Shown here: in pieces, positions 995 through 28,186 of the stretch
Numbering within the stretch: position 1 is the first letter of the stretch
Layout: each line of letters begins with the position of its first letter
Translations under genes and position numbers: made by a program
Notes under the pieces: model-generated
Database searches by the model: none
What the model was told of the DNA's origin: nothing
Seen by the model: only the letters and a program-made list of their open reading frames with translations
From: an uncultured delta proteobacterium
GTDB lineage: Bacteria; Desulfobacterota; Binatia; Bin18
DNA length: 64,000 nt
NCBI GenBank assembly: GCA_963733195.1
Contig: CAVTCR010000009.1
Coordinates: forward strand, 120,255 to 184,254
Reading direction: 5' to 3'

Positions 995-1005
995 GAGGAG
1001 CGACG

Positions 1006-3900: not shown

Positions 3901-4017
3901 TGAATGAGAGAAGAGAGAACGAAGACATCAGAGCTAAAAGGTCTCTCATCCCCACAGCCTATAGCCTGAAGCCTTCAGCCTCATCTTCATCATTCATCAT
4001 TCTACATTTTGCATTTC
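3872..4017. repeat. Heptamer tandem-repeat inverted element (ATGAATG)n ... (CATTCAT)n with internal (nAGCCTn) heptamers
   Basis: atgaatgatgaatgatgaatg at the tal-pgi 3' end; complementary ttcatcattcatcattc before the gnd RBS. Confidence 0.6.
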
Positions 4018-4033
4018 TTAGAGGAGGCATAGT

Positions 4034-4930: not shown

Positions 4931-4968
4931 CTCGGACTTTCCGCCCGGCCATAAAGTGACTTTGTTGC

Positions 4969-5079
4969 TAAATCCCCCGAGCCCCCTTTTTCTAAGGAGG
5001 GAATCTGAACGCCCCATTTGGCAAAACCTGTCCTGAGCTTTGTCGAAGGAGGGGCCGCGCGGCGCGCGGGGGGATTTGA
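4969..5079. repeat. REP-like palindromic intergenic repeat with a nested second REP
   Basis: AAATCCCCC...GGGGGATTT termini, internal CCCCCTTTTT/AAGGAGGG hairpin, embedded CCTGTCCTGAGCTTTGTCGAAGG. Confidence 0.6.
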
Positions 5080-5152
5080 GCCGTAATGGTAAGGCACCGG
5101 GGCTTGCAACAGTGTCGTTGCTCGCTGGGAAAAGCGAATCAGAGGATACACT

Positions 5153-6754: not shown

Positions 6755-6787
6755 GTCACCCATAGTGATAAATAATGCGGGACGCCT

Positions 6788-7777
6788 ATGATACAATATA
6801 TTTTGGCCGGTGATATCGGCGGTACCAAAACCAATCTCGCACTTTACGTGGTCGAGCGCTCTACCCATGTCACGCTCCTGCGAGAGTCCTCCTTCGCTAG
6901 CAAGCAATATGATGGGCTGGAAACCGTGATCCGAGAGTTTCTCCAGTCTGATCATGAACAGGTGTCCGCCGCCGCTTTTGGCATCGCGGGACCGGTCCTC
7001 GACGGTGTAGTCCTTGCCACCAACCTGCCGTGGAAAGTCGAGATTGATAGCATCGCCAGTGTCCTCGGGTGTTCGCAGATTCGGATCATGAACGATCTGG
7101 AAACAACGGCCTACGGTTCGCTATTCTTGCTACCGCATGAGATTCAGGTCCTCCAGGAGGGAAAAACGCGCTACGGCCATCGGGTCGTCGTCGCCGCTGG
7201 CACTGGCCTTGGACAAGCATTTTTGATTTGGGATGGCGCCCGCTACCGGCCCGTCGCTACAGAAGGGGGGCATGCCGATTTTGCTCCGACCAACGAAAAA
7301 GAGATTGAACTGTTGCAGTTTCTCAAACGCAAATATCCGCGCGTCTCTTACGAGCGTGTCCTCTCTGGTCCTGGGCTTGTCAACATCTTCAATTTTCTCG
7401 ACCAACATCTGCATCGACCCGTGGCTCCGATCGTTCGCCAACGGATCGTCAATGAAGATCCAGCCGCAGTGATCGGACAAGCGGGTACCGAAGATCTGTG
7501 CCCCACTTGCACTGAAGCCGTAGATATTTTTCTCAGTCTTTATGGCGCCCAGGCTGGCAATCTTGCCCTTGCAATCATGGGGCTGGGCGGTGTGTATATC
7601 GGTGGTGGGATCATTGTGAAAATGTTGCCAAAAGTCACTTCTAGTGCGTTCATGAACAGTTACCTCGCCAAAGGACGCTACACTCAGTTTATGGCCGATA
7701 TTCCTGTTCGCATTATTCTGAACGCCAAGACCTCGCAATTTGGCGCAGCCCACGCGGCTCGTGAATTATTGGCTTAG
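6788..7777 (+). CDS. glk: Glucokinase
   Basis: [46 protein letters not shown]. Confidence 0.95.
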
Positions 7778-7803
7778 CAAGAACAAAAACGGAACCGACC
7801 CTC

Positions 7804-10515: not shown

Positions 10516-10628
10516 TGATGAATATGCGAGAATTTAGAGTCTTTTTTATTTGGGGTTCCCATAATTTCATCGCATCGACCTCCTGTCTAAAGAACTCTTT
10601 TTCGCCCTTTGATTTTTCTTAATAGCGT

Positions 10629-11381
10629 ATGACAAATCTTCACATCTGTCAGGATTCCCAAGATCTGTATTACCAAGCCGCGACCCTGTTCACGCGTTTG
10701 GCGAACGAAGCTATTGCAAGCCAGGGCCGCTTTACCGTTGCACTCTCTGGTGGCTCAACGCCTAAAGAAGTGTACTCTCTCCTTGCAAACCGAAACCCAC
10801 GCATGCAGCCGATTGCATGGCCATATGTCCACGTGTTTTGGGGTGACGAGCGTTGCGTGCCGCCGGTTCATATGGACAGTAACTATCGCATGGCGAATGA
10901 GGCGTTGCTGGCTCACGTCCCTATTCCACCGGAGAATGTCCACCGTATCCATGCGGATCTGTTGCCGCTCGAGGCCGCGTATAACTACGAACGGGAACTC
11001 CGTGAGACGTTCTCACTTCCGCCTGATGGCACGCCGTGTTTCGACCTCGCTCTCCTTGGTATGGGACCAGACGGGCACACGGCTTCACTCTTCCCTGGAA
11101 CTAGTGGGGTGCAGGAAGAGAATCGCCTCGTCGTCGCCCATTACGTCGAGAAGCTTGCAAGCTGGCGTGTCACACTGACCGCCAAGGTCTTCAATGCTGC
11201 GGCTCAGGTCGCATTTCTCGTTACCGGTGCGGATAAAGCGGTAACGTTGAAAGAGGTGCTTGAAGGTCCGTTTCAACCGGACCGACTTCCCTCGCAATTG
11301 ATCCGACCTGCACCGGAAAATCTCCAATGGTTTGTAGACGAAGCAGCGGCAAGTGCACTGACAAACAAAGATCGACCGTAG
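10629..11381 (+). CDS. pgl: 6-phosphogluconolactonase
   Basis: ALSGGSTP, WGDERCVP, LGMGPDGHTASLFP. Confidence 0.95.
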   Translation: MTNLHICQDSQDLYYQAATLFTRLANEAIASQGRFTVALSGGSTPKEVYSLLANRNPRMQPIAWPYVHVFWGDERCVPPVHMDSNYRMANEALLAHVPIPPENVHRIHADLLPLEAAYNYERELRETFSLPPDGTPCFDLALLGMGPDGHTASLFPGTSGVQEENRLVVAHYVEKLASWRVTLTAKVFNAAAQVAFLVTGADKAVTLKEVLEGPFQPDRLPSQLIRPAPENLQWFVDEAAASALTNKDRP

Positions 11382-11430
11382 AGACAATGCCACACAGAAA
11401 GCTCACGCATCACGCACAGATGAGGAACCC

Positions 11431-12201
11431 ATGCCCAGCAATTACGTTATCGACATGGACGGAGTGATTTATCTCGGCAACGAACTCATTCCTGGAGCCA
11501 AACAGTTTATTGATCGACTCATGAAGGGAAACCACCGGTTTCTCTTTCTCACTAACAGTTCAAACCTCACTCCCGTCGATTTGACACAGAAGCTTAGTAA
11601 GATGGGCATCGAAGTGAGCGAATATCATTTTTTCACTTCAGCGATGGCTACCGCGGATTTCCTCAATCATCAGCTCCCGAACGGTCGGGCATTCATCATC
11701 GGTGGCGAAGGGCTTCGTGAAGCGCTGCTTGCGGTGGGGTACACCATCACCGACGATAAACCAGACTATGTCATCGTTGGTACGACGCGGACGTATGATT
11801 ACGACCGGATGGAGAAGGCTGTCTCTTTGGTGCGCGCTGGGGCACGACTCATCGGCACCAACCCAGATGTGACGGGTCCGTCTGACCATGGTATCATTCC
11901 TGCTTGCGGGGCACTGGTTGCGCCCATCCAACTTGTCACCGGAGCGCATCCCTATTTTGTCGGTAAGCCAAATCCCTTGATGATGCGCACGGCGTTGCGT
12001 CGGTTACGTGCCCATTCAGGAGACACCTTTATGGTGGGGGACCGCATGGATACAGATGTTATCGCCGGGACCGAAGCCGGTATGCGTACAATCCTCGTTT
12101 TGTCAGGTGTCACGAAACGTGAAGACATCGATACCTACGCATTCCGTCCTCATTACGTCTTCGATACGGCAGGTGATATTCCGGTTGATGAGCTGAGTTG
12201 A
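11431..12201 (+). CDS. nagD: HAD-IIA family phosphatase (NagD-like)
   Basis: DMDGV, LTNSS, GKPNP, GDRMDTD. Confidence 0.88.
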   Translation: MPSNYVIDMDGVIYLGNELIPGAKQFIDRLMKGNHRFLFLTNSSNLTPVDLTQKLSKMGIEVSEYHFFTSAMATADFLNHQLPNGRAFIIGGEGLREALLAVGYTITDDKPDYVIVGTTRTYDYDRMEKAVSLVRAGARLIGTNPDVTGPSDHGIIPACGALVAPIQLVTGAHPYFVGKPNPLMMRTALRRLRAHSGDTFMVGDRMDTDVIAGTEAGMRTILVLSGVTKREDIDTYAFRPHYVFDTAGDIPVDELS

Positions 12202-12309
12202 ACAAGCAATTGCGTGGGAAACAATGATTCGGTCTTTTCCGCGCTTGAGCCCACGGTATTCTGTTGTTACGTTTAAGCACCCTCTCTGTTTTCCTCAACG
12301 GTAGAATAT

Positions 12310-13906
12310 ATGCTATTTACTGAGTCTGCTGGTGAACATCGTCCAGTCTTTTATCACCCCAAAGGAGAGACGTCCCGACTCGTGACGTTGTCCGTGCCTG
12401 AGCGGCTCGACTACTTCACTCGTCTGCCGCTCTTTGAGAACATTCTCGATCAACTCTTTGAGAAGCGTCCAGTCGTCGCTGCGGACGGAAAGAAACAGAT
12501 TCGCGACCTGTCCGTGCGCGACGCACTCGTCGAACACGCCGAGTTCTATGAAGTCCCAGCCAACACTGCCGTCTTTCAGGAAGGCAGCTTTGGTGAGCAT
12601 CTCTTCATCGTTCTTAAAGGCACCGTCCGCACCAGCACCCATGTCTCCTTGGATAACGAGCGTAAGGCCGCCGTCAGGCTGGAAGATCTCAAGGATGGGG
12701 CGTTTTTTGGCGAAATGTCGGCACTATCGATGAATGCCCATCTGCTCACTGCCGAAACCGTCACACCGACGTTCTTGTTGCTCGTCCCGCAATTTATCGT
12801 CCAAGAGCTCGCGACACTCCAGGAACCACCTCTTCCTTCGATTCCTCGATTCCCCGATTTTCGCAGTCTGATTATGCAGGAGTACGTGCGGCGAGCCGTG
12901 CAAACCCTGATCCGCCGTATCCCAATGCTTCGCTTCACTTCCGACAACGACATTGCGAAGCTACTGACAAAAGTCGAGCTGAAGACCTTCGAGGCTGGAG
13001 ACATTATCTTTGAAGAAGGCGACCCGGCTGACGACTTGTACGTTATCCATCAAGGATTCATCAAAATCTCCAAACGTGACGAAACCAAGCAACGTATCCT
13101 GAGTTATCTGAGCGAAGGGGATTGTTTTGGTGAGACCGGGGTTCTTGCCAACGCGCCTCGTTCGGCCAGTGCCACGGCTATGAGTCGGACTGAATTACTG
13201 GTTGTGCCCGGCCCACAATTTCAATTGCTCGTGAATGCCAATCCACAAGCGATTCAAGAAAGTCGTGGAGTCGCAAACCTGCGCCGCTTGGACGCTGATA
13301 TGGCACAGGACGTTACCTTTATTGGGGTACGGTTGCAGTTTCAAGCCGAGGTCATGCCTAACCTCGATGTCCTGGCGATCGACGAGACGCTGTGTGTCCG
13401 CTGCGATAACTGTGTGAAAGCCTGCGCTGCCGCCCATGATGATGGGATCTCCCGCTTAATCCGCAAGGGCACTATTTTTCAGGAAATGTTACTGCCCACC
13501 GCCTGCCGCTTCTGCCAAGACCCAGTGTGTCTCTTATGTAAGTCTGGCGGGATCAAGCGTGACAAAGATGGGGATATCTACTTCACTGACAGTTGTATCG
13601 GTTGTAGTGGGTGCGCCCAGCGGTGCCCGTACGGCAACATCATTATGGTCGATACCGAGGAGCTAGAGCATTTGACACGGCCAACTTTAGCTGATCAGCT
13701 CTTTCGCATTGGCGCCCAAAAACGCGAGGAAGAGATCCCCACAGAGCAAACGACCGCGGTTGAAGAAGGTGCCGGTGAAGTGCGACCTCGACAAAGGCCA
13801 TCTCTTTCCCGCATGTGTGAATAACTGCCCGACCCAAGCGATTAGACGTTATCGTGCCGATGAGCTTGATGTCATCATCGCCGGGCAACGTAACAAAAAG
13901 TCCTAA
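12310..13906 (+). CDS. Tandem cNMP-binding domains + DmsB/NrfC-type multi-[4Fe-4S] domain (frameshift near 13720-13760; true C-terminus in ORF 13709-13906)
   Basis: Two cNMP folds (FFGEMSA; CFGETGVLANAPRSASA); Cys groups CVRCDNCVKAC, CRFCQDPVCLLC, CIGCSGCAQRCP; fourth group KCDLDKGHLFPACVNNCP in the +1 frame. Confidence 0.85.
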
Positions 13907-13929
13907 CGCGTGCAGTAGAAGAGGAGTGT

Positions 13930-15003
13930 ATGCGGTCACCCGCACGTTGGTACGTCGTCGCGTCGATACTTGTAGCTCTGTTGAACCTTGCCTATTACTA
14001 CCATTACACCACCCACTTGGTTGGCCCGCCTTCGGGCCGCACGTTTGAAGGGTTGTTGCTGGGGAATCTTGGGTTTGCCGCCATGCTCGGCGCACTCCTC
14101 TACAGCGTACGCCGTCGCTTCTTGAGCCGCGCCATGAACGCGATCCGTGTGGACCCAGACACACGGCGCAAACTCAAGGAAGGGGAACGACATGCACTTG
14201 AGCAGTTACAGAATCTGCAGCGACAGGTCATGCAGAATGCCGCGCTACGCGTGTCTGCCGTCCGTCGCCAAGCCAGCGGCATCCTTCGCCAGACCGGTAT
14301 GAAGCGCTACCTGTATGCTCAGGTTTCCGCTGGACCTGGGGGACGCGGCACACGCCTGTCCATTGGCCGACGCGAATGGGGTGGCCGTCTCCAGACCTGG
14401 TACTACTGGCATCTGATGTTAGGGTGTTTGTCGATTCTGTTGATTCTCACCCACGCCGGGTTTCGTTTCGGTAACCTTGTCGCTGTGCTTGCACTCGTCT
14501 GTCTAATTGGCGTGGTTGCGACGGGGATCTGGGGGTACATCATTTATCAACTCATACCCACCGCACTGACCAAGGTTGAAGAACGGGTCGAAAAGACTCC
14601 CGAAGAGTTGCGCGACGAATTACAGGAAGTGAATCGAAGGTTGGCCACTATCACCCAAAAGAAATCGCAGATCTTTCATGAGATCTATCAACAAGAAGCA
14701 GCGATACCGGGAGTGAGTCTCGAACCCACGTGGCGTTGGTTATGGGCACCGGCAGAAATTGCCCGCGACACGACCCGTCCAGATCGTCTGCGCCTGATTG
14801 TCAAAGAAATCCCCAGCCCCGAACAAGAAGATTTCCGCGAAATGGTCCGGTTACTCTTCCAGAAGGAAAAACTTGAGGTCTCACTCTACCCGCAACTGCG
14901 GTATGATTATCTGCTGAAGATCTGGCTCAGCCTGCATATTCCGCTGACTGCTGGGCTGATGATCTTTTCACTAATCCACATTGTATCGATCCTCCACTAC
15001 TGA
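13930..15003 (+). CDS. Integral membrane protein, putative di-heme b (ferric-reductase-like TM domain)
   Basis: About 5 hydrophobic segments; two H-x13-H pairs (HLMLGCLSILLILTH, HIPLTAGLMIFSLIH). Confidence 0.7.
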   Translation: MRSPARWYVVASILVALLNLAYYYHYTTHLVGPPSGRTFEGLLLGNLGFAAMLGALLYSVRRRFLSRAMNAIRVDPDTRRKLKEGERHALEQLQNLQRQVMQNAALRVSAVRRQASGILRQTGMKRYLYAQVSAGPGGRGTRLSIGRREWGGRLQTWYYWHLMLGCLSILLILTHAGFRFGNLVAVLALVCLIGVVATGIWGYIIYQLIPTALTKVEERVEKTPEELRDELQEVNRRLATITQKKSQIFHEIYQQEAAIPGVSLEPTWRWLWAPAEIARDTTRPDRLRLIVKEIPSPEQEDFREMVRLLFQKEKLEVSLYPQLRYDYLLKIWLSLHIPLTAGLMIFSLIHIVSILHY

Positions 15004-15023
15004 TCGCACAAGGGGCAGAGCCC

Positions 15024-18000
15024 ATGATCAAGCTCACGATACTGACCGGAACAGACGCAGGGAAAGAGATCACGCCAGCAAGTGATCCGATTATCCTTGG
15101 ACGGAGTAGCACCTGCACGATCGTGCTCCATGATGCGGCAGCATCTCGGCGTCATTCCAGTATTGAACGGCGCGGGACCGACTATGTGTTGACCGACTTG
15201 CAAAGCGGCAACGGCACGTTTGTCAACTCACCCGGAACTCGGATTCACGCACCATATACGCTGCAGGATGGTGACGAAATCCTCATCGGGAAAAGTCGTG
15301 TCCGTATCGGATTATTTATACAAGCCGAAGAAGACGAAGCAGCGAAAGTCCCCGTACAGCCATCCTCAGCGGCGATCTCTACAGGTTCCGCACAAGTTGA
15401 CACGACCTCCGGGACAGAACTCGCTCAGCCTGTCCAAATACCTCCACCCGCCGCTGATGCAGGACTCAATGCCGTCCATCAACCGGATGTGCCGATCGTC
15501 GTCACCATCGTCAGTGGTCCAAACCGCGGTATGGTCTACTCTCCAGCCCGCGAGGTATTTTCCATTGGGCGTGCAACTACGTGTGATATTGCACTGACCG
15601 ATTCCACCGCCTCACGTGTGCACGCCACCATCAAACGGGAAGCAGGGAAATATCGCCTTTACGACGAGAATAGCGTCAACGGTGTCTATCTGCGCACTCC
15701 GCAAAATCGTGTCTATCATGCAGATCTGGCTGACGGCGATACGATTTATATTGGCCAGAACCAGTTACGCGTAGAAATTTCTCTGACGCCACCACCCATC
15801 GCGACGGGTAACGAGGATGCCACACGGATCTCCGGTACCATTGGCGGGAAGAGTTTCACGTTCACTCTGAAAGCACTCGGCAGTAACGCGCGAGCAGCAC
15901 AGACGGACGAGGCGACCCACTTGGTTACCGGACAAAGCGGCGCGACTACGCCCGAAGAAGCAACCAGTGACGTCCCCCAGTCTGTCGCGGCCCAGGGGGG
16001 GCCAAAAATTGCACTGCGAGTCATTGCGGGAAAGGATCAAGGAACTGTTTTCACACCTCCTCCAGGGTCAGATCGTTGTACGATTGGCCGCGGCGAACAA
16101 GCAAACTTTCGCTTACAGGACCGTGGGGCGTCGCGTATTCACTGCGCGATTGAGATTTCTCCTGCCGGATTTTTTCTGGTTGATGATGGCAGCCTCAACG
16201 GCACCTTTCTCAACCAGGCTACTGAGCGGGTCACGCGCGTGGCCCTCAAGGGCGGAGAAGAGATTCAGCTTGCCGATACTCGTCTGAAGGTCGAGATAAC
16301 ACCGCCAGAAGGTGCAGCAGCAGCCGAGGGCGTTAGCGAGGAAAAGACAGCACACGTCCCATACCATGCACCACCCGCTCCACCATCTGCAACACCGAGC
16401 GAACCAGCACCGATCGTCCTTGTGCAACCCGCAACTGAGAACGTCAGATCGCGGTCTGCAGCATTCAAAGATCGCCTAGCAACCATCGCCAAACAGAATG
16501 GTGTCACACTCCGACCGTTCACCGTTCCTGGAACACCCCGGCAGTGGGTAGCGCTTGCCTTGATGTTGTTGGCAGCACTCAGTTCGTATGGGTTCGCAGT
16601 GCTCGGTCGACAAGCGTATTTTTCTGGTGGCCCCATTTCGGAAAGTCACGCTAAACTTGAGCAGCAATGCACGTCGTGTCATCCAACGTGGGGTCTCCAG
16701 CCAGTGAATGCCACGTGCGCTGCAACAGACTGTCACGCTGATGTATTGAAGGTTAAAGACAATACTCGCGACGACTGCGTGAGTTGTCATACCGAACACC
16801 GGGGCCGTACCTTCGCGATCAAGGGTGGGGAAGCCCAGTGTTGGAGCTGTCATAAAGCTGGGATGAACGTTCGCGCCTATGCCTCTCGCCCGATGGGCGT
16901 ATACCACACTCAGGTATTCTCTGTAGCTGAACAGCTTGTTCCACAACCAGGCAAGGTTCCTACCCAAGGAATCCAGCCAGCCGCGCTAATGACTGCTCGC
17001 GAGACCTGGCTGAAAGATTTCACCGCTCAACCGACTGGACTCAAATATGCCCATGCAGCACACGCGGCGGATGTTTTAGAAAAGAACAAAAAGCAGGAAC
17101 AGTGTCTGGATTGCCACGTCAAGTTGCTGGATGGGCAGTTCACACCGTTCCCAACTCACGCCCAGTGCATTGACTGTCACAAAGAAGTTGCCAACCAAGA
17201 TCCACAGGTCGCAAAAGCAAGTGCCTCGGAGAAGTGTTTACTGTGCCACACCCAAAAGGACGGCGGTATCACCCGTGTGAAACAGGACGTAAATTTTGTC
17301 GCCTTCCAACATACCGATCATGGGCAAATGCGTTGTGTACAGTGTCATGCTGTAGTGACGGCTGAGACGGAGTATCGTCCGGTGCTGCGCTCCGCAGCCG
17401 CATACCCGATGCCGATGGACGCCTGTTATTCTTGCCATCAAGACAAGAAAGTCACAATCGCATGTTTGGACTGCCATCGCCAACATCACAGCTATCCGTC
17501 AACCACTGACTTAGTCCAAGGATGGTTCGGCAACCTTCCTTTCAGCAGCGTCTTACTCACCTTCGTCGGACTGGTCGGCGCGATGGGCGCATATACGTAT
17601 ATGGATATGCGCCTTGCACGTCGCTGGTTAGCCTCGCTCGAAGAACCTCCAGCTGCCCCTGCCGGCGGTGCAGCAGCAGGCTCCGCTGCTCAGGGTGCTG
17701 CCGGAGTCCCGCCACCACCTCCGCCAGCTGGTGAAGGCGGCGTGCTCCCCTACCCAACTGTTGATGCCGCTACCTGTATTTCATGTAGCAGTTGCTATGA
17801 CTCGTGCCCAACCAACGTCTTGGAAGGTGACCACACAACACACAAGTCTACGGTAGTCAATCCTAATGCGTGCATATCGCTCACCGAAGGTTGCACTATC
17901 TGTCAGGACGGCTGTCCGACCGGCGCGATTCGCGTCACGACCGCACCGTTAGTGAAGGAAGTCGAACGTCCACAGACTGACCAACATAACGAAAGCAACC

Positions 18001-18932
18001 TTCCTGGAGTCTTCTTGGTTGGAGAAGTCATCGGAGCCGCGCTCGTCAAGAAAGCAGTCAACCAAGGTGACCAAACCATTCGTTATATCGGTAACCGCAA
18101 ACCTCGTATTGCCGAAGCGCAGTATGATGTCATCATCGTTGGTGCCGGCCCTGGTGGACTTGCGGCTGGGCTCGAAGCAAAACGGCTGGGGCTGCGGTAC
18201 CTCATTCTCGAGCGTGAGAGCATTGCCAGCACGATTCAGAACTATCCCCGCGATAAAGCTGTGCTAGCCGAACCGGTGTTGTTGTCTATCTACGGCTTGC
18301 TGCCAATGATGGATGCAAAGAAAGAAGCCTTGGTCTCTTTGTGGGAGGAGATTGTTCGCAAAAGCGATCTCCAGGTCAACGTTCGTGAGGAAGTTACCGA
18401 AGTAAAGAAAGTCAGTAATCTGTTTACAGTAACGACGGTTAAAGGATCGTATCAGGGTGCGTATGTTGTTCTGGCGACCGGAACCCGTGGCAACCCGCGC
18501 AAGATTGGAGTTAAAGGCGAGGACAATCCCAAGGTCACCTATAACCTTATCGATGCTGCGGAATGGAAAGGGAAGAACGTGCTTGTAGTCGGTGGCGGTG
18601 ATAGTGCAATTGAAGCTGCGGTCGCTTTGTCGAACGAACCGGGGACGACGGTGACGTTGTCCTATCGGCGCGGAGAATTCAGCCGCGTTAAGCCACGCAA
18701 TGAGCAAGCAATTAAAGAACAAGCAAAAGCAGGGCGACTGACCTTGCTGTTTAACTCCAGCGTCACCGACATTAGCGACAAAACAGTCAAGATCAAAGTC
18801 GGTGATGAAGTACGAGAGCTAGAGAACGACGCCGTCTTTGCACTGATCGGCGCCGATCCGCCGAAGGCTTGGTTAGAAAAGATGGGGGTTAACTTTGTGA
18901 TCGTGAAAGAAACCGTCGGCGGTGGGTGGTAG
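15024..18932 (+). CDS. Fusion: 3x FHA - TM - multiheme cytochrome c - TM - 2x[4Fe-4S] ferredoxin - FAD/NADPH oxidoreductase (TrxR/YpdA/FNR-like)
   Basis: Three GR..SRxH..NG FHA signatures; 9 CxxCH + CAATDCH between two TM helices; CISCSSCYDSCP and CxxxxxxCTICQDGCP; GAGPGG, GGGDSA, SYRR. Confidence 0.9.
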   Translation: MIKLTILTGTDAGKEITPASDPIILGRSSTCTIVLHDAAASRRHSSIERRGTDYVLTDLQSGNGTFVNSPGTRIHAPYTLQDGDEILIGKSRVRIGLFIQAEEDEAAKVPVQPSSAAISTGSAQVDTTSGTELAQPVQIPPPAADAGLNAVHQPDVPIVVTIVSGPNRGMVYSPAREVFSIGRATTCDIALTDSTASRVHATIKREAGKYRLYDENSVNGVYLRTPQNRVYHADLADGDTIYIGQNQLRVEISLTPPPIATGNEDATRISGTIGGKSFTFTLKALGSNARAAQTDEATHLVTGQSGATTPEEATSDVPQSVAAQGGPKIALRVIAGKDQGTVFTPPPGSDRCTIGRGEQANFRLQDRGASRIHCAIEISPAGFFLVDDGSLNGTFLNQATERVTRVALKGGEEIQLADTRLKVEITPPEGAAAAEGVSEEKTAHVPYHAPPAPPSATPSEPAPIVLVQPATENVRSRSAAFKDRLATIAKQNGVTLRPFTVPGTPRQWVALALMLLAALSSYGFAVLGRQAYFSGGPISESHAKLEQQCTSCHPTWGLQPVNATCAATDCHADVLKVKDNTRDDCVSCHTEHRGRTFAIKGGEAQCWSCHKAGMNVRAYASRPMGVYHTQVFSVAEQLVPQPGKVPTQGIQPAALMTARETWLKDFTAQPTGLKYAHAAHAADVLEKNKKQEQCLDCHVKLLDGQFTPFPTHAQCIDCHKEVANQDPQVAKASASEKCLLCHTQKDGGITRVKQDVNFVAFQHTDHGQMRCVQCHAVVTAETEYRPVLRSAAAYPMPMDACYSCHQDKKVTIACLDCHRQHHSYPSTTDLVQGWFGNLPFSSVLLTFVGLVGAMGAYTYMDMRLARRWLASLEEPPAAPAGGAAAGSAAQGAAGVPPPPPPAGEGGVLPYPTVDAATCISCSSCYDSCPTNVLEGDHTTHKSTVVNPNACISLTEGCTICQDGCPTGAIRVTTAPLVKEVERPQTDQHNESNLPGVFLVGEVIGAALVKKAVNQGDQTIRYIGNRKPRIAEAQYDVIIVGAGPGGLAAGLEAKRLGLRYLILERESIASTIQNYPRDKAVLAEPVLLSIYGLLPMMDAKKEALVSLWEEIVRKSDLQVNVREEVTEVKKVSNLFTVTTVKGSYQGAYVVLATGTRGNPRKIGVKGEDNPKVTYNLIDAAEWKGKNVLVVGGGDSAIEAAVALSNEPGTTVTLSYRRGEFSRVKPRNEQAIKEQAKAGRLTLLFNSSVTDISDKTVKIKVGDEVRELENDAVFALIGADPPKAWLEKMGVNFVIVKETVGGGW

Positions 18933-19011
18933 TTCGATCTGTTGTCCCAAACAACGAAAATCAGCGGAGAGAATCGAGGGGAGGATTTTGGCGGTTGTCA
19001 TACGGGAGCCT

Positions 19012-19608
19012 TTATGCAAAGAGATTGCGCACAGGTAATTGCAATTGCGGGAGAACCACAGACGTCAGCGTATCACCCGTGCGGAACAAGAGTGGTGCGC
19101 CATAGCAGCCATTCACTAAACGGAACATCGTGACTTCCCGACGGTCTGTGTCTACTAACCAATATTCGTCGACTCCATTACGTTCGTAGATGGCTTTCTT
19201 CTCAGTGCGATCACGTAACGCAGTTGGTGTTGAAAGGATCTCTACGACTAGGTTCGGAGCAATCTCCAAAAACTTTCCACGGCGTGGAGTAGGGCCCGCC
19301 TGCAGTCGAGCGTAGGAGATAAAAGACACATCTGGTTCAAGAGTATCGCCTGACGGGAGACGATAGCCGGCACTTGACCCAAACACCTCTCCCAACTGAT
19401 ATTGAGAGGCACAGTTGAAGAGCGGAGAAACAATTCGTGCTTCGGTATTGGCATGCGGCCAGCCAGCAGGTGGAGTCATGACAATACTCCCGTTCAGCAG
19501 TTCGTAATGATTCGTATCGGAGTGTGGCAGTTCACTGAGCCACTCTTCAAACTCATCTTGAGTGAATGTTTCGGTAGAAACGAACGCAGTCTGTGGCATA
19601 ATGTACAC
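19012..19608 (-). CDS. Uma2 family (PD-(D/E)xK-like) endonuclease domain protein
   Basis: YELLNG, EPDVSF, PNLVVEILS, KKAIYERNGVDEYWLVD. Confidence 0.9.
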   Translation of the reverse strand: MYIMPQTAFVSTETFTQDEFEEWLSELPHSDTNHYELLNGSIVMTPPAGWPHANTEARIVSPLFNCASQYQLGEVFGSSAGYRLPSGDTLEPDVSFISYARLQAGPTPRRGKFLEIAPNLVVEILSTPTALRDRTEKKAIYERNGVDEYWLVDTDRREVTMFRLVNGCYGAPLLFRTGDTLTSVVLPQLQLPVRNLFA

Positions 19609-19702
19609 CAGCAGGGAAAATTTTCAGACGTTACTGTAGCACGAGAGCCCAAAGGCGGACAGATGCGAGGAATTCACTATCAGCCCTGAGAAGAGGTGCG
19701 AC

Positions 19703-21889: not shown

Positions 21890-22140
21890 ACAATTCGGCT
21901 TCAGCCTGTTCAGGCTTTGCTTGCCGGCTTTGGCTTGTCTATTTAGCTGCTCGGCTTTCGGTCGTTCTAGCTTTCGCTTAGCTTGTCGGCTTAGTGGTTC
22001 GTTGGCTTGCTCGCTTTCGCTGGTCGAGGTTCGGCGGGCTCGGCTTTCGATCGTTCGGCTGGTCAGCCTTGGCTTGTCCGCTTTAGCGTGCGCTAGGTCT
22101 AGCCTGTTCGCTTTACTTGTCGGCGGCTTGGTTCTACTTT
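21890..22140 (-). repeat. Low-complexity ~15-bp coding repeat (KAEQA/KAEQP-like linker), indel-ridden
   Basis: Minus strand shows repeated AAAGCCGAGC/AAGCC units between the kinase TM and the Ig domains. Confidence 0.55.
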
Positions 22141-25100
22141 ACAGTTTGTTATTAGTTCAGAAGATTGAAAAGCCCCGCTGAAATACAGGCCGAGGGCAGC
22201 CGCAACGGCAAGCGCAACCGCACCCGCGACAATCGGCGTGGACTGGCGCGAGGCAGAAGGGGTCGCCACAGAGACAGAGGAAACTTCTGGGCGGTTTTCT
22301 GATTGCGGAACCTGCTCAATAAGCGTCGGCTCATCTTCATCCGTCTTTTGCGGGCGAAGAGCTGATAGGAGGGCCAGCGCTTCTTCATAACTCGCTTGCG
22401 CCTGAGGGTAGCGCTTTTGTTGGAGCAGTTGGTCACCACTAGTGATTGCTTTTTCTGCCTGCTTCTTTTGTTTTCCTTTAGAGCTGCGTGTTTGTTCTCG
22501 CAGCTCGTAGGCTCGTGTTTTAGCAGACTCAGCCTCTTGCTTTTGCTGCGCTACGCTGGCTTCTTGGCGGATCTGCTGCCAGCGGACAACCACTCGGTCA
22601 AACCGATCGAGCGCATCATCGAACTTTTCGTGCGTGAGCGCCTGTTCTGCCTCATGTAACAGAGACATTGCTTCTACGTGTTGACCAGGAAGAAACTCTT
22701 CGCTTTTGGCCGTCTGAGCCTCTGCCTGTGCAGCTACGGCTTTTTCTCGCGCCGCCACCGCCATTTGCTTCGTACGGGTGAGCCGTGCAGTCTCACATGC
22801 ATTACTGAACAGTTCGCTGGCTTGGGCGAAGGCGACAACTGCGTCTTCAAATTTTTCCGTGGCAACCGCAGCCTCGGCCTGTTCTTTCACCGCTTGTGCT
22901 TTGCGGTAAAGCTCTTCAGCGTATTGCAGAGCGTGGGCAGTATCAGCTTCTTTCTGCCGTTCTTTCGTTTCCTGGCTTGCAGCTATAGCACGCTGCCGTC
23001 GCTCTTCTGCCTCAGCCTCGATTCGGGCACGTGCATAGCTCTGAGCGGCGCGTTCATAGTGCTCACGTGCCTGCTCATAGGCATGCGCCTTCCAGGCTCG
23101 TTCACCTTCGGATTCGTGACTTTGCGCTTCTTTCCAGATGGCTGCAGCAAAACTCGGGGCAAGTGTACCCGCCTCTTGTCTCGCTTGTAGCGCTTTTTGC
23201 TTCCCAGTCTCCGCATGCTCTCGCGCAACTTGTTGCTGCACTGCCTGAGCAAGTTTTACCAGCTGCTGCTGTGCCTGCTCGTAGTCACGTCGTGCAGAAG
23301 GAAAATCTTGCCGCTCTTCAGCGGTACGACCTTGCTCCAGGAGTTGTTGGGCTTGCGTCAGATCTTGAGGAAAACGGTGCGCAGCATCAGCCTCCATCAC
23401 TGTGGACAACGCCTCCTCAGCATGTTGACGAGCAGTCACCGCCTGTTGCTTAGCCTGTTCGCGCTGTGCGGTGACTCCAGATTGGATAAAGAGTTCTTCC
23501 GCACGACGATAGACGCCAGTGGCTCCAATAAACTCCTGTTGCTGTTGGTGGCGTCCAGCTTCTGCTATAGCAGCAGTGCCCTGATTGAACTCGGTGGCTG
23601 CGTAGCGCGGGGCTCCCGCCTCTTCGGCTTTCTTTTTCGCGGTAGTGGCTTGTTTCTCCGCCTGTGCGGTCTCTTGGTAGAGTCGCTCATGTTCTCCGAC
23701 CTCGACCACCTGAGCGTATGCCTGACTCGTCTGCGCATACCCGGCAAGCGCCGCTTCATAATCCTGCCCTTTGAACATCCGCTCGGCATCGGCTTCGCGC
23801 TTCTGCGCTCCATCCCATGGAGCTTTTGCCCACTGTTTCAGCGTACTGGCCTTCTCTTTCGCCAGGAGCATCTGTCGGCGAGCAGTATCAGCTTCTTCTC
23901 GTGCCGCCTGTATATCCGCCTCACGCCGTAGCCGTAACAGCTGCTGGAGGGCCTGCTCATAGAAACTCGTAGCCTGGGCAAAATCCTGTTGCGCCTCTGC
24001 TTGTTGTCCTTGCTCCGTCAAGCGTTGCGCGCGGGTGAACTCCTGCGCGAAGCGCGTGTTCGCTTCTGCTTCTTCGGCAGCGGCACGTGCAGCCTCCAAT
24101 CGTTGGCGAATGGCAGCGGCGGCTTGACGGGCTTTTTCCTGTTGTGCGTCATGAGCAGCTTGTGACCACAACGAACGTGCCTGCAAAAACTCCTGACTCG
24201 CTTCACTCCAGCGTTGCGCACGAAGATGTTGTTCCGCCTGTTGCTGAGTTTTAGTCACTTGTTGATACAACGCAGCGGCATACTGTTTTGCTTCAGCTTG
24301 TTCTGCTACGGTGCGAGCGTCCTCAGCCTGTTGACGAGCGTCGAGTGCCCGTTGTCGCAGCCGTTCAATCTCTGCCGCCTTACGGATCTCCTCGGCTTCT
24401 TGCCGTGCTTCTCTATAGAGTTGCGCGGCCCGATCATACACCTCCGCTGCTTCTGTATAGCGTTTGGCACTCCAGGCGCTGTCAGCTTCGCCTTCGCGAC
24501 GCTGCGCCTCTGTATACTTTGCCCCAAACCATTCATCGAGTCCTGAGAGCCTGTTGCGTGCCTCAGCCACACGCCCACGAAAGGCTTCTGCTTTCTCTCG
24601 TTCGGCTTCCTGAAACGCATCACCAGCGAGGCGTTGCCACGTCTGTAGCGCTTGCTGGTATCCATCGACTGCCTGAGAAAAATTCTGACGTGTTTCCTCT
24701 TGTTTTGCGTGCTCAACAAGATGTGAAGCGTGGGCAAAGTCGTCGGCAAAGCGTTGGGCAGCTCCAGCCTTCTCTGCAACCTGACGCACATCTTCTGCTC
24801 GTTGTCGCGCTGCGGCGGCTTCCTGTTTCTGGCGTTCGTGCTGTGCAGCCTCTGCCGCTTTGGTCAACAACTCAGCCGCGCGCCAATAGCGCTGAATCGC
24901 GACACGTAGATCCTTGGCTTGTATTTGCTGTTCTGCGTCTTTTTGCGCTGCAAGCCCTTCTCGCCACAGGTCCGCCGCATAGCGAGCAGCGTCAGCCTTC
25001 TCAGCTTGTGCTTTCGCCGATTGGGCCTGCTCCTGGGCGTCGTGGGTTTCTTGCTGCAGTTGCTCGCGTTCGGCATTGGCCCGGGCTTGGGCATACGCCT

Positions 25101-27384
25101 GCGTTGCCTGCACATAGAGTTCCGCGGCACGACCATACTCTTGTTTTTGGTACGCGAGCTCGGCTTGCTGCGCTCCCTCTTGCGCTTTTGTCCAACTTGC
25201 TTTCGCCCAGGTTTGCAGCGCCTCACTACCCTGAACGACCGCTGTCATCTCCTGCCGTGCGACATCGGCACGTTCACGCGCAACGAGGACAGTCGCTTCA
25301 CGTGCTAATTGCTGAAACCGTTGCGTTGCCTGCGTATAGAAGTCGCGGGCAGCACTATATTGCTGCTGTTTCTCGTTCTCTTGCCCTTGCGCAGTGAGTC
25401 GTTGCACTTCTGCGTACATCGCAGCCGTTCGTTCCTTTGCTCCAGCCTGATCTGCTTGTGCTTGTGCTTGTTGGAGTTGCTGACGAACTGCCGCAATCTC
25501 TTGTTTTTCTTGTTCGAGCTCAGCCTCCTGTGTAGCTCGCTGGTAAAGATCACGTGCTTGCACGTACGCGTGCACGGCTTTTTCATGGGCCTGCGCTTGC
25601 AGGTGCGTATCGCCTTGCTTCTGGAAAATCGCCGCTTGCTGGTATGATGGAGAAGCAAGCTCTCGAGCCCGTGCAGCATCAGCGCGGCCCTGTGCCTCTG
25701 TGGTTTGCCGTTGAACTGCAAACGCTTCCTGTCGCTGTCGTTCGCTCTGGGCCTGTTGCTGGGCACGCTCATACTTCTGCGCCGCAGCGAGAAATAACTC
25801 ACGTGCTTGGGTGAATTCCTCGTGCGCTATCGCCGTATTCGCCCGTTGCTCCTGATCCACAGCCTCCTGGAAGAGGTTCTCAGCAAACTGCGCAGCTCCT
25901 TTTTCTTCTGCCGCAGCCTTCGCTGCAACCACGCGAGTTCGTGCTTTTTCGGCCTCTTCTTTCAAGGTCTCGCGGTAGGCAAGCTCGCGGGCGTCGGCAA
26001 AGAATCTTGCAGCTTCGCCATAGATCTGGGCCGATTGTTGAAAATCTTGTTTCTCTAAGAATTCGTCGGCTTGCGATTGCAGAGTCAGTCCGCGAGTATA
26101 ACGGGTGCGAGCATGGTCACGTGCGCCATAGTGCTCAGCCTCCTCTTTGGCGGCAGCCATATTGTCTCTGGCTTGCTCTGCCTTATGCTTGGCCGCTGCA
26201 GCCTTCGCTTCCGTACCTGCTCGGTCAAATATCTGTATGGCCTCTTCGAACGCTTGCTGGGCGGCAGTGAAATCCCGCTCCCGTAGGCTTTTGGCTCCCT
26301 GTTCTTCAGACGTGCGTCCTTGCTGAAGCAGTGTCGCTGCCCATTCTGCAGCTCCTTCTCGCGTGGCGCGTTCGCGTGCTTCTCGCGCTTGCGTTTGAAA
26401 CGGTAACACACGACGGCGTTGTTGCTCTTCTTGCAGTTCACGGATGCGCTGATCGATGTCCTCGTCTGCCGGGGCCTCTGTGCTTTTCTTCTCTTCCGTT
26501 CCAGGTCTTGGGATAATAAGCGTACCGGTTTCTTCCTCCTCTGGACTTAAATTACGACAGGCATCTAACGCCTGCAGGAGGTCACGCATGCCGGGATAGC
26601 GACGGGTGCGGGTTTTGGCGATTGCGCGCGTCAGCAAGTCGGCAAAAGCGGTGGGCGGTGGACGGTCAAAGTGGGGCTCATTCTCCTTGTTGTCATACAA
26701 GACCCTGCGCAACACCTCATGTTCATCAAGCCCGCCAAAGAATTGCTTACCGGTGTACATTTCGTACATGACCATGCCGAGCGAATAAACATCAGCACTA
26801 CCGTCGAGCGGCTCGTGGCGCAGTTGCTCGGGGGAAGCGTATTTCAGCGTCCCGATCACCATGCCGGTCTTCGTCGAATCTCCATCTCCAAGTTCTTTGG
26901 CAATACCAAAATCCATCACCACGACGCGCGAAGAGCGATCTTCAATCATGATATTGGCAGGCTTGATGTCGCGGTGAATGATGGGAGGAGTGTGGTTATG
27001 CGCGTAGCCGAGCGCATCAGCAACCTGACGGGAGATAGTGAGAAGCTCGGGGAGCGGCAGCGGTCCCTTTTCACGGAGATACTTGCCGAGGGTCACACCC
27101 TCGATGTACTCCATGACAAAGTAGTAGAGGTTCAGACTTTCATCCCGTTCGATATCAAGCACTTTCACGATATTGTCATGCTTCAAACGAGCCATGACGC
27201 GCGCTTCGCGATAGAAGCGGTTCACCATGTCTTCATTTTCCATCAAGTACGCAGGCAGGACCTTGAGGGCAGAGATGGTCTCTAGGCGGGTATGGCGTAC
27301 TTTGTACACCAAGCCCATGCCCCCCTGGCCGAGCGAGCCCACGACCTCGTACTTACGGGAAATCACCATTGCCGGCGTAGCCAT
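22099..27384 (-). CDS. Hanks-type Ser/Thr receptor kinase with ~18 helical repeats and a TM helix (likely extends to 20654)
   Basis: LGQGGMGLVY, ALK, HRDIKPAN, DFGIAK, GTLKYASPEQ; ~77-aa Ala/Gln/Glu repeats; TM IVAGAVALAVAAALGLYF. Confidence 0.92.
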   Translation of the reverse strand: MATPAMVISRKYEVVGSLGQGGMGLVYKVRHTRLETISALKVLPAYLMENEDMVNRFYREARVMARLKHDNIVKVLDIERDESLNLYYFVMEYIEGVTLGKYLREKGPLPLPELLTISRQVADALGYAHNHTPPIIHRDIKPANIMIEDRSSRVVVMDFGIAKELGDGDSTKTGMVIGTLKYASPEQLRHEPLDGSADVYSLGMVMYEMYTGKQFFGGLDEHEVLRRVLYDNKENEPHFDRPPPTAFADLLTRAIAKTRTRRYPGMRDLLQALDACRNLSPEEEETGTLIIPRPGTEEKKSTEAPADEDIDQRIRELQEEQQRRRVLPFQTQAREARERATREGAAEWAATLLQQGRTSEEQGAKSLRERDFTAAQQAFEEAIQIFDRAGTEAKAAAAKHKAEQARDNMAAAKEEAEHYGARDHARTRYTRGLTLQSQADEFLEKQDFQQSAQIYGEAARFFADARELAYRETLKEEAEKARTRVVAAKAAAEEKGAAQFAENLFQEAVDQEQRANTAIAHEEFTQARELFLAAAQKYERAQQQAQSERQRQEAFAVQRQTTEAQGRADAARARELASPSYQQAAIFQKQGDTHLQAQAHEKAVHAYVQARDLYQRATQEAELEQEKQEIAAVRQQLQQAQAQADQAGAKERTAAMYAEVQRLTAQGQENEKQQQYSAARDFYTQATQRFQQLAREATVLVARERADVARQEMTAVVQGSEALQTWAKASWTKAQEGAQQAELAYQKQEYGRAAELYVQATQAYAQARANAEREQLQQETHDAQEQAQSAKAQAEKADAARYAADLWREGLAAQKDAEQQIQAKDLRVAIQRYWRAAELLTKAAEAAQHERQKQEAAAARQRAEDVRQVAEKAGAAQRFADDFAHASHLVEHAKQEETRQNFSQAVDGYQQALQTWQRLAGDAFQEAEREKAEAFRGRVAEARNRLSGLDEWFGAKYTEAQRREGEADSAWSAKRYTEAAEVYDRAAQLYREARQEAEEIRKAAEIERLRQRALDARQQAEDARTVAEQAEAKQYAAALYQQVTKTQQQAEQHLRAQRWSEASQEFLQARSLWSQAAHDAQQEKARQAAAAIRQRLEAARAAAEEAEANTRFAQEFTRAQRLTEQGQQAEAQQDFAQATSFYEQALQQLLRLRREADIQAAREEADTARRQMLLAKEKASTLKQWAKAPWDGAQKREADAERMFKGQDYEAALAGYAQTSQAYAQVVEVGEHERLYQETAQAEKQATTAKKKAEEAGAPRYAATEFNQGTAAIAEAGRHQQQQEFIGATGVYRRAEELFIQSGVTAQREQAKQQAVTARQHAEEALSTVMEADAAHRFPQDLTQAQQLLEQGRTAEERQDFPSARRDYEQAQQQLVKLAQAVQQQVAREHAETGKQKALQARQEAGTLAPSFAAAIWKEAQSHESEGERAWKAHAYEQAREHYERAAQSYARARIEAEAEERRQRAIAASQETKERQKEADTAHALQYAEELYRKAQAVKEQAEAAVATEKFEDAVVAFAQASELFSNACETARLTRTKQMAVAAREKAVAAQAEAQTAKSEEFLPGQHVEAMSLLHEAEQALTHEKFDDALDRFDRVVVRWQQIRQEASVAQQKQEAESAKTRAYELREQTRSSKGKQKKQAEKAITSGDQLLQQKRYPQAQASYEEALALLSALRPQKTDEDEPTLIEQVPQSENRPEVSSVSVATPSASRQSTPIVAGAVALAVAAALGLYFSGAFQSSELITNCKVEPSRRQVKRTG

Positions 27385-27400: not shown

Positions 27401-28186
27401 TCAGTTGGCTACGGTCGGATCTTCAACGTACGACAGAAGAATAATCGTACTATTGTCGCGACCCCCACGTTCGTTGGCAAGATTCACCAGCGTATCACAG
27501 GCTTTTTCAAGATCTGGAGCCGTCTGTTCAATAATGCGGAGCATGTCCTCATCATCAATTACCCCGTGGATTCCATCGCTGCAGAGGAGATAGATATCTC
27601 CCGACTGCGGCCGTTCGAGGCGGACAGACGGTTGAACGAGCGGGCTAACGCCGACAGCTTGAGTCAGCACATGACGATGCGGGAAAGTTTTGACCTCGGT
27701 CGGTCCGATCTTCCCCTCTTTGAGCAACTGCTGCACCAACGAGTGGTCTTCGGTGAGGCGTTCAATCACCCCTTCTCGAACACGGTAGACACGGGAGTCA
27801 CCAACATGACAAATTCCTGCAACACTCTCTTCTTCATCAAATAAGACCGCTGCCACCGTGGTCCCCATTCCATTGAGGTTCGGGTCCCGCTGGCTCATCT
27901 CAAACACTTTGTTATTTGCTCTCTGGATCGCAAGGAAAAGGCGACGGCCAGCAACCGAAGACCACCCATTCTGGGTAGTGATAGGCGTCAGATCTTCCCC
28001 TTGGGTCTCCTGGAGAACACCATGCATCGTCTCCACAGCTAAAGCACTTGCGCGCTCCCCACCGACGTGCCCGCCCATCCCATCCGCCACGATATAAAAC
28101 GCCGCATCAGGGAAGAATCCTGAAGAATCCTCGTTTTTCGCGCGTACCTTACCCGTGTCTGTTTTTACTGCGCCACAGATGGACAC
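27401..28186 (-). CDS. PP2C/PPM Ser/Thr phosphatase (Stp1/PrpC type)
   Basis: RAKNED, VADGMGGH, GMGTT, HVGDSRVY, LCSDG, GGRDN; 16 bp upstream of the kinase. Confidence 0.95.
   Translation of the reverse strand: MSICGAVKTDTGKVRAKNEDSSGFFPDAAFYIVADGMGGHVGGERASALAVETMHGVLQETQGEDLTPITTQNGWSSVAGRRLFLAIQRANNKVFEMSQRDPNLNGMGTTVAAVLFDEEESVAGICHVGDSRVYRVREGVIERLTEDHSLVQQLLKEGKIGPTEVKTFPHRHVLTQAVGVSPLVQPSVRLERPQSGDIYLLCSDGIHGVIDDEDMLRIIEQTAPDLEKACDTLVNLANERGGRDNSTIILLSYVEDPTVAN

Follow-up and report, generated by a model that had tools for sequence, protein, structure and literature searches.

A recurrent fusion of FHA, decaheme, ferredoxin and flavoprotein modules and its candidate di-heme membrane partner in an uncultured Binatia bacterium

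Electron exchange with minerals, electrodes and partner cells needs a crossing of the inner membrane, and the known routes begin at quinones. The Hmc, Tmc and Nhc systems of sulfate reducers and the Cbc systems of Geobacter route electrons through periplasmic multiheme cytochromes c, a membrane cytochrome b and cytoplasmic Fe-S proteins. Other described systems are also related in their parts to the locus of this study. He et al. 2017 reported membrane proteins of five helices that carry an SGxxG motif and two W-x3-H-x13-H motifs, are encoded beside multiheme cytochromes and, in the authors' proposal, hold two b hemes (PMC5566968). The ptdABCDEFG genes form a putative porin-cytochrome operon, the function of which is stated to be unknown (Elbon, Stewart, Glass, bioRxiv 10.1101/2023.11.21.568154). 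In Ferrigenium straubiae, a nonaheme cytochrome c (NHC) with an FHA domain and a transmembrane (TM) helix has a 5-TM protein and a [4Fe-4S] protein encoded next to it, and the authors state that FHA domains with multiheme cytochromes were previously unreported (bioRxiv 10.64898/2026.01.22.701106). Finally, the PF01794 di-heme cytochromes b of MsrQ-like systems receive their electrons from NAD(P)H (Meheust et al. 2021, PMC8238504). Here, we analysed a 64,000-nucleotide window of an uncultured delta proteobacterium of the Binatia (the whole stretch, contig CAVTCR010000009.1, positions 120,255 to 184,254), which encodes a large fusion protein, P0001, directly behind a membrane protein, P0002, and a soluble protein, P0003. 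The three gene products probably form a signal-controlled path for electrons through the inner membrane.

P0001 is encoded by one open reading frame (ORF) on the forward strand (15024..18932, 1302 residues, no internal stop), as are all of the modules described below. From the N-terminus, three FHA domains are followed by a TM helix, a decaheme segment, a second TM helix, a 2x[4Fe-4S] ferredoxin and a Cys-free flavoprotein resembling YpdA and thioredoxin reductase (TrxR). The Pfam FHA family (PF00498) matches in three stretches with 166.3 bits against a cut-off of 20.7. FHA1 (15093..15290, aa 24-89, the best Pfam stretch), FHA2 (15498..15767, about aa 159-248, delimited by the stretch of the NCBIfam OdhI model) and FHA3 (16020..16292, about aa 333-423) contain the residue sets GR26...SRRH...NG, GR182...SRVH...NG and GR355...SRIH...NG, respectively. 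The decaheme cytochrome c domain (16668..17477) carries nine CxxCH motifs and one CxxxxCH motif, and two multiheme families pass their Pfam thresholds weakly (Paired_CXXCH_1, 29.9 bits vs 20.6; Cytochrom_CIII, 30.2 bits vs 22.9). Since 2000 shuffles of the protein gave a mean of 0.02 CxxCH motifs and never exceeded 2, the observed set is beyond chance. The ferredoxin domain (17754..17933, aa 911-970) has eight Cys residues at aa 918-964, and Fer4_7 (PF12838) matches aa 917-968 with 28.9 bits at a cut-off of 27. The FAD/NAD(P)H flavoprotein (18123..18896, aa 1034-1291; YpdA/low-Mr TrxR type) is matched by Pyr_redox_3 at aa 1037-1289 (E 5.5e-50) and shows both dinucleotide motifs, GxGxxG at aa 1040 and GGGDS at aa 1190-1194. 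It lacks the redox-active CxxC, and no Cys occurs in P0001 after aa 964.

TM helix 1 (16545..16610, aa 508-529; Kyte-Doolittle mean 2.19 over 19 residues) has the character of a signal anchor predicted to run from inside to outside, and it is a helix also in an AF2 model of low overall confidence. TM helix 2 (17535..17591, aa 838-856; Kyte-Doolittle mean 1.78) would return from outside to inside, with no Lys or Arg in the preceding 15 residues and three Arg in the following 15. Attachment of c-type heme is extracytoplasmic, and FHA, ferredoxin and flavoprotein modules are cytoplasmic domain types. The genome carries five Omp85 matches and three matches to cytochrome c assembly (PF01578 maturation genes). 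Because the charge pattern around TM2, the domain types, the site of heme attachment and these genes point the same way, the consistent reading of the topology is in-out-in, with the decaheme in the periplasm. Neither helix contains a His residue. The initial annotation had described a single polypeptide with three intact FHA domains, two TM helices, these ten heme motifs at the same coordinates, two Fe-S Cys motifs and motifs for FAD and NADPH, placed in-out-in and without a cofactor of its own in the membrane, and our results agree with it on each of these points. The AF2 model of the heme domain (aa 493-865, 26 sequences) was unusable, with a mean pLDDT of 50.7.

A search of 5.8 billion proteins revealed 19 other full-length proteins that match P0001 with at least 97% query cover and 42-85% identity. 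They were drawn from NCBI, JGI, ENA and Logan assemblies, and some of them, from metagenome-assembled genomes of Candidatus Binatia or Methylomirabilota, are annotated just as 'NAD(P)-binding domain-containing protein' or 'FHA domain-containing protein'. In a 20-sequence alignment, to which the following statements on residue conservation refer, little or no change is seen in any of the ten heme motifs, the eight Fe-S Cys or the two dinucleotide motifs. The Cys and His residues of the decaheme motifs are unchanged except C771 (at least 90%), and the ferredoxin residues C918, 921, 924, 928, 950, 957, 960 and 964 are invariant, as are Y1214, R1215 and R1221 of the flavoprotein together with its GxGxxG and GGGDS motifs. 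Eight further His and M798 of the heme domain are also invariant and H766 is kept at 90% or more; these residues could be distal heme ligands. FHA3 retains its full set (G355, R356, S370, H373, N392, G393) and FHA2 is near-invariant, with G182, R183, S197 and H200 unchanged; the Ser and Asn of FHA1 vary.

These relatives bear directly on whether P0001 is made of separate genes that were joined wrongly in assembly or by a frame artefact, a concern raised by the 87-contig assembly of the genome and by the segment 15364-16350, which no contig of another sequencing run covers and which is uninformative either way. Against a chimera stand the full-length relatives from four source collections and six independent JGI metagenome contigs (L108-L113), all six of which hold an open frame with the same motifs and none of which has a stop codon between the modules; the sole '*' in the L111 frame is the natural stop codon. 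Contigs of other public runs span the junctions from TM1 through the heme domain to TM2, from TM2 to the ferredoxin, with an in-frame 6-nt gap within the linker, and from the ferredoxin to the flavoprotein. We therefore regard a chimera as practically negligible in probability, and P0001 is confirmed as a real, recurrent architecture. Two contigs from an RNA library match 17346-17638 exactly, which is not evidence of transcription.

Members of the family around P0001 have any number of FHA domains from 0 to 4 and 7-10 hemes, and the ferredoxin-flavoprotein part is present in some forms and missing from others. P0279, for example, consists of FHA, TM and 10 CxxCH motifs and matches P0001 at E 1.1e-9. 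In the loci L110, L111 and L112, a CTICH or CTVCH sequence lies inside the cytoplasmic ferredoxin domain, where it is an Fe-S motif and not a heme site; simple CxxCH counts are thus one heme too high there. Among 201 genomes of the window's own phylum, 29 gave a match at E<=1e-20, the match extended beyond the ferredoxin-flavoprotein part only in the window's genome, and the full fusion was not found in the others. A profile-pattern scan of genome contigs with generic flavoprotein patterns gave no full-length P0001 relative among the matches listed.

The flavoprotein matches, among other solved relatives, PDB 7a7b, 7a76, 5ygq and 3lzw. Its best match (aa 1035-1290) is 7a7b, the disulfide reductase Bdr, at E 1.2e-41, and TrxR-type FNR chains follow far below YpdA (5ygq, 5.9e-12). 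It reaches neither the YpdA model TIGR04018 (191.2 bits vs a cut-off of 339.9) nor the TrxR model TIGR01292 (95.1 vs 343.45), and CxxC is absent. Being below both cut-offs and Cys-free, it can be classed neither as a thioredoxin reductase nor as a YpdA equivalog. Both dinucleotide motifs are shared with YpdA/Bdr and with TrxR-type FNRs, and the absence of CxxC is shared with the latter; unlike these, the P0001 module is part of a ferredoxin fusion with a membrane tether. With its fused ferredoxin, it is most plausibly an NAD(P)H:Fe-S oxidoreductase. At the column of aa 1044, the relatives P0006-P0010 read GAGPCG where the window reads GAGPGG. The Cys of GAGPCG corresponds in position to YpdA Cys14, where the window copy has Gly. 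A thiol at this position is thus gained or lost within the family.

The P0002 gene (13930..15003, forward strand) ends 21 nt upstream of P0001. It encodes a 5-TM membrane protein with W157-x3-H161-x13-H175 on TM3, W332-x3-H336-x13-H350 on TM5 and TGxxG on TM4. It falls into no Pfam or NCBIfam family, but its relatives number 1204 representatives at E<=0.001. Across 64 aligned sequences, H161, H175, H336, G199 and G202 are invariant and H350, W157 and W332 are kept at 90% or more, and the consensus on TM4 is SGxxG. The AF2 model of P0002 has a pLDDT of 90.7 and a pTM of 0.83, with helices at residues 5-28, 39-74, 154-176, 183-217 and 296-356. By positive-inside reasoning, H161 and H336 would lie at the cytoplasmic level and H175 and H350 at the periplasmic level. 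P0002 is a candidate wire of two b hemes across the membrane. Weak matches to heme families at E<=0.1 were found among the 64 family members for PF01292 (23), DUF4405 (PF14358; 20) and PF01794 (9). One of 62 relatives, P0145, passes the PF01292 cut-off of 30.1, with 32.4 bits. For P0002 itself, the best match to a di-heme b family is DUF4405 at E 0.099, and it stays below the Pfam threshold of PF01794. Matches in the ESM Atlas are 'hypothetical protein' clusters only. Complex prediction of P0002 with two hemes and P0001 aa 495-985 gave a median ipSAE of 0.56, compared with 0.00 for the best control; the runs had at least 53% of contacts in common, and the partner pLDDT was at least 64. Of 157 solved complexes, 116 reach the ipSAE mark, as do 2 of 215 mismatches, and those that reach it at ipSAE <=0.60 comprise 18 of the 157 solved complexes together with both mismatches.

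The gene of P0003 (12310..13824, forward strand) precedes that of P0002. P0003 is soluble and contains two cNMP-binding domains (cNMP_binding, E 1.1e-37, two stretches), matches to Fer4 families, and three groups of four Cys at aa 362, 399 and 429, which may hold up to three [4Fe-4S] clusters; by architecture it is PtdE-like. The order P0003-P0002-fusion is kept in all four loci that reach far enough (L108, L110, L111, L113); L112 contains the end of P0002 and then the fusion, and L109 begins within the fusion gene. A hidden Markov model of P0002 relatives also detected a P0002-like ORF in 17 of 17 distant loci holding the closest ferredoxin-flavoprotein genes, 15 of which encode in addition a cytochrome with at least 13 CxxCH motifs. 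These 17 loci span Bacteroidota (including the isolate Thermobacterium salinum), Planctomycetota, Acidobacteriota, Gemmatimonadota, Omnitrophota and Alphaproteobacteria. In L122-L128, the genes follow a third, divergent arrangement. The short own-phylum loci L089-L095 (about 4 kb or less) show no P0002-like ORF, with flanks too small to decide.

Natural fusions connect the same parts. In 21 of 119 homologs, the ferredoxin-flavoprotein and a C-terminal P0002-like domain (E 1e-14 to 1e-34) form one protein of about 740-960 aa; these proteins (within P0044-P0074) occur in Planctomycetota and other groups, for instance at 6809-9082 of L011, 6851-9097 of L021 and 5345-7675 of L023. P0052 of Engelhardtia mirabilis, named 'Ferredoxin--NADP reductase' in UniRef, is one of them, and P0069 and P0070 carry PF01794. 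The initial annotation had suggested the upstream His-pair protein as the partner wire of P0001. This suggestion is supported by the four conserved His residues, and because relatives of P0002 stand in every one of the distant loci and are fused to the ferredoxin-flavoprotein itself.

We consider that the genes at 12310-18932 encode one inner-membrane redox complex, a quinone-free route from NAD(P)H to the periplasm with the FHA and cNMP domains as likely gates, a proposal whose chances we judge to be about even. In the proposed sequence of events, the FAD of the P0001 flavoprotein would be reduced by NAD(P)H, possibly with a preference for NADPH, and would pass electrons to the two [4Fe-4S] clusters of P0001, possibly also via the Fe-S clusters of P0003. 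The electrons would then cross the membrane over two b hemes of P0002, from H161/H336 on the cytoplasmic side to H175/H350 on the periplasmic side, and move to the ten periplasmic c hemes of P0001 and on to periplasmic or outer acceptors. Such a route would follow the logic of NADPH oxidases and ferric reductases, with a multiheme wire as its output. Reasoning from thermodynamics and the membrane potential favours outward flow, and the NADPH-making genes upstream fit this direction. Since outward flow would dissipate the membrane potential, gating is to be expected; the likely gates would be the cNMP domains of P0003 together with the three FHA domains, which a kinase and a phosphatase encoded nearby may serve.

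The candidate writer for the FHA domains is a 1761-aa Ser/Thr protein kinase (22099..27384, reverse strand; Pkinase 6e-50, weak MIT-like match), adjoined by a PP2C-type phosphatase (27401..28186, reverse strand; PP2C_2 4.5e-12). Both are context only and sit 3-9 kb downstream of the fusion gene. L111 and L113 likewise have a kinase homolog downstream of their fusion genes. Many FHA domains prefer pT-x-x-[ILV]. The FHA2-FHA3 linker of P0001 contains two E-A-T-x-x-V motifs in line with this preference, at 15909-15926 (aa 296-301) and 15957-15974 (aa 312-317), and E-A-T-x-x-[VILM] occurs twice in the protein compared with 0.29 expected. Such motifs are present in 11 of 22 relatives, eight of these with the linker position, and in closer relatives only. 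A phosphothreonine link of the FHA domains is plausible, and T298 and T314 could form a phospho-switch, which we regard as a lead only. Outside the window, about 1 kb ahead of its start (G000:C9:118917-119201 in L007), there is a further FHA-like match (E 1.1e-4).

A more specific form of the proposal, which we put forward tentatively and think more apt to fail than to hold, is a NOX-like, quinone-free release valve. Through it NADPH, for which the adjacent oxidative pentose phosphate genes are a possible source, would be discharged to periplasmic or extracellular acceptors, and only if both a kinase signal read by the FHA domains and a cyclic nucleotide read by the Fe-S subunit allow it. The switch could then be the T298/T314 linker, by analogy with GarA and OdhI, which fold back on their own phosphothreonine. 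An outward valve of this kind would be wasteful, and the presence of signalling domains therefore makes sense. If true, this would be the first direct phosphothreonine gating of a respiratory-type electron wire.

Several observations weigh against the proposed route. P0002 has no match to a heme family of Pfam or NCBIfam at E<=0.01, its model has no Foldseek match in the PDB at E<=0.001, a wide VIA-align search with the model found generic helical hairpins alone (Z at most 8.9), and the profile of 64 relatives met coiled-coil or designed proteins only among PDB sequences. The complex prediction is graded as 'weak support' only. The closest characterised relative of the flavoprotein, YpdA/Bdr, is a disulfide reductase and not a ferredoxin reductase. 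The locus L113 has phosphoglucomutase upstream in place of pentose phosphate genes, and L108 has no kinase homolog downstream of the fusion gene; the links to the pentose phosphate genes and to the kinase may therefore be synteny inherited among close kin. Finally, PF01292-type cytochromes b are usually quinone-reactive.

The last point leads to a quinone-coupled complex, in which P0002 would be a quinone-reactive cytochrome b that connects the decaheme with the quinone pool, as in CbcL/Cbc, and the ferredoxin-flavoprotein would be a side entry; the whole would then be an NAD(P)H:quinone or quinol:cytochrome c hub. The matches of P0002 family members to PF01292 (cytochrome b561/hydrogenase cytochrome b), known members of which bind quinones, fit this scheme, and He et al. 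2017 propose a quinone-active cytochrome b for their proteins (PMC5566968). However, the ferredoxin-flavoprotein is fused to a P0002-like domain in the natural fusions and is membrane-anchored beside a P0002-like protein in distant phyla, which indicates a direct hand-over from Fe-S to heme b. No quinone-site motif was identified, though none was specifically tested for. We consider quinone coupling to be unlikely. The same parts may instead work inwards, as a conduit by which outside electrons (from Fe(II), reduced cytochromes or cathodes) pass through the decaheme, the b hemes and the Fe-S clusters to FAD and reduce NAD(P)+ or a low-molecular-weight disulfide, in an Hmc/Tmc-like manner or as suggested for the Ferrigenium nonaheme cytochrome. 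That cytochrome is set in a context of Fe(II) oxidation (bioRxiv 10.64898/2026.01.22.701106), PCC3/PCC4 clusters occur in Fe(II) oxidisers (PMC5566968), and a disulfide as the end acceptor would suit the resemblance to YpdA and the Cys14-equivalent Cys of P0006-P0010. On the other hand, Cys is entirely absent from the window's flavoprotein, the adjacent upstream genes serve to produce NADPH, and uptake against an inside-negative potential to NAD(P)+ (about -320 mV) would need donors of very low potential, so that we rate an inward conduit as distinctly doubtful, below quinone coupling. Scarcely probable is a periplasmic redox sensor, in which the heme domain reports the redox state to the cytoplasmic domains without bulk electron transfer. 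The FHA and cNMP domains are signalling modules and a large kinase and a phosphatase are nearby, but with its ten hemes, FAD and two Fe-S clusters, plus a conserved di-heme partner, the system makes up a full wire, and in many phyla the same core lacks both FHA and cNMP domains.

The trio is immediately preceded by a co-directional block (5-12201, forward strand) of oxidative pentose phosphate and sugar genes. Its first part encodes the C-terminal part of a transketolase, a 964-aa transaldolase-PGI fusion, 6-phosphogluconate dehydrogenase and glucose-6-phosphate dehydrogenase, and the rest encodes glucokinase, a GH63/MGH-like hydrolase, 6-phosphogluconolactonase and a HAD phosphatase. Pentose phosphate genes are also upstream in L108 and L111. 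The downstream flank consists of a Uma2-family gene, a small ORF and a PKD-like protein; the Uma2-family putative endonuclease gene (19012-19608, reverse strand) sits right behind the fusion gene in convergent orientation and is absent from the loci of relatives. A scan of 11300-19700 for promoters and terminators gave counts not above those of shuffles. Three more multiheme cytochromes are encoded on the forward strand 14-23 kb from the trio, at 32973-34238, 38122-41943 and 41940-42977, with 10, 10 and 4 CxxCH motifs, respectively, and are possible downstream acceptors. The second of these, a 1273-aa protein, has LVIVD repeats and a weak MtrC/MtrF-like match, and a gene for an HbpS-like heme-degrading/binding protein (34930-36063, forward strand) lies between the cytochrome genes.

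Compared by features and not by homology, P0002 agrees with the PCC3/PCC4 inner-membrane proteins of He et al. 2017 in its five TM helices, W-x3-H-x13-H on TM3 and TM5 and [S/T]GxxG on TM4, and it adjoins a multiheme cytochrome and 'another redox protein', as in the PCC3/PCC4 and 'other MHC' clusters; in PCC4 subgroup II, an Fe-S gene (pfam13247) likewise precedes the membrane protein gene (PMC5566968). The window operon differs in that it contains no porin gene and that its cytochrome is fused to FHA, ferredoxin and flavoprotein modules; 'FHA' has a count of 0 in the text of that paper. The ptd operon is alike in parts and order, by architecture only, with PtdE (cNMP/4Fe-4S), PtdF (a ferric-reductase-like membrane protein) and PtdG (a decaheme), and its set also includes the FAD/NAD(P) oxidoreductase PtdC. 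In the window, by contrast, the PtdC-like flavoprotein and a ferredoxin are fused behind the decaheme with three FHA domains in front, and no genes for a pentaheme PtdA, a porin PtdB or a tetraheme PtdD adjoin the trio. The Ferrigenium NHC has a similar layout, which runs from a cytoplasmic FHA domain over a TM helix to a multiheme domain in the periplasm. Its neighbours are a [4Fe-4S] protein and a 5-TM protein that lacks an InterPro match, and the authors did not identify this 5-TM protein as a heme protein. The NHC differs from P0001 in its single FHA domain, nine hemes and single TM helix, and neither a ferredoxin nor a flavoprotein is fused to it. Proteins laid out much like the NHC, such as P0279, do match P0001.

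The His-pair membrane protein type (2017), the ptdEFG/ptdC gene set and the FHA-nonaheme cytochrome (both in preprints) are thus already described, and P0001 is an architectural variant of a gene system that has so far been predicted. The single-polypeptide fusion was not found in print: literature searches for it and for ferredoxin-flavoprotein/His-pair fusions returned the Ferrigenium preprint only and no paper describing either. The fusions that join the ferredoxin-flavoprotein to the decaheme on one side and to the His-pair domain on the other give a testable function to the PCC3/PCC4 five-helix proteins, the ptd operon and the Ferrigenium nonaheme cluster. This family suggests a second, widespread route for electrons, directly from NAD(P)H. 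The FHA and cNMP domains would make it a rare case in which kinases and second messengers control an electron-transfer complex itself and not its transcription.

Among the established membrane systems, Hmc, Tmc, Nhc and Cbc differ from the trio in that they have no NAD(P)H flavoprotein, FHA or cNMP domain, and their b and Fe-S subunits belong to different families. The nearest functional analogy is that of the NAD(P)H-fed MsrQ-like systems. With these, NADPH oxidases and ferric reductases, the trio would share the logic of electron flow from NAD(P)H through a flavin and two stacked b hemes to an extracytoplasmic acceptor, and natural fusions of a flavoprotein with a His-pair domain occur in the window's family as well. 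The trio is not a member of the NADPH oxidase/ferric reductase group: its dehydrogenase is a TrxR/YpdA-type two-Rossmann module with a ferredoxin, not FNR-like PF08022/PF08030 or PF00175, and its acceptor would be a covalent wire of ten hemes in place of O2, Fe(III) chelates or a flavinylated protein.

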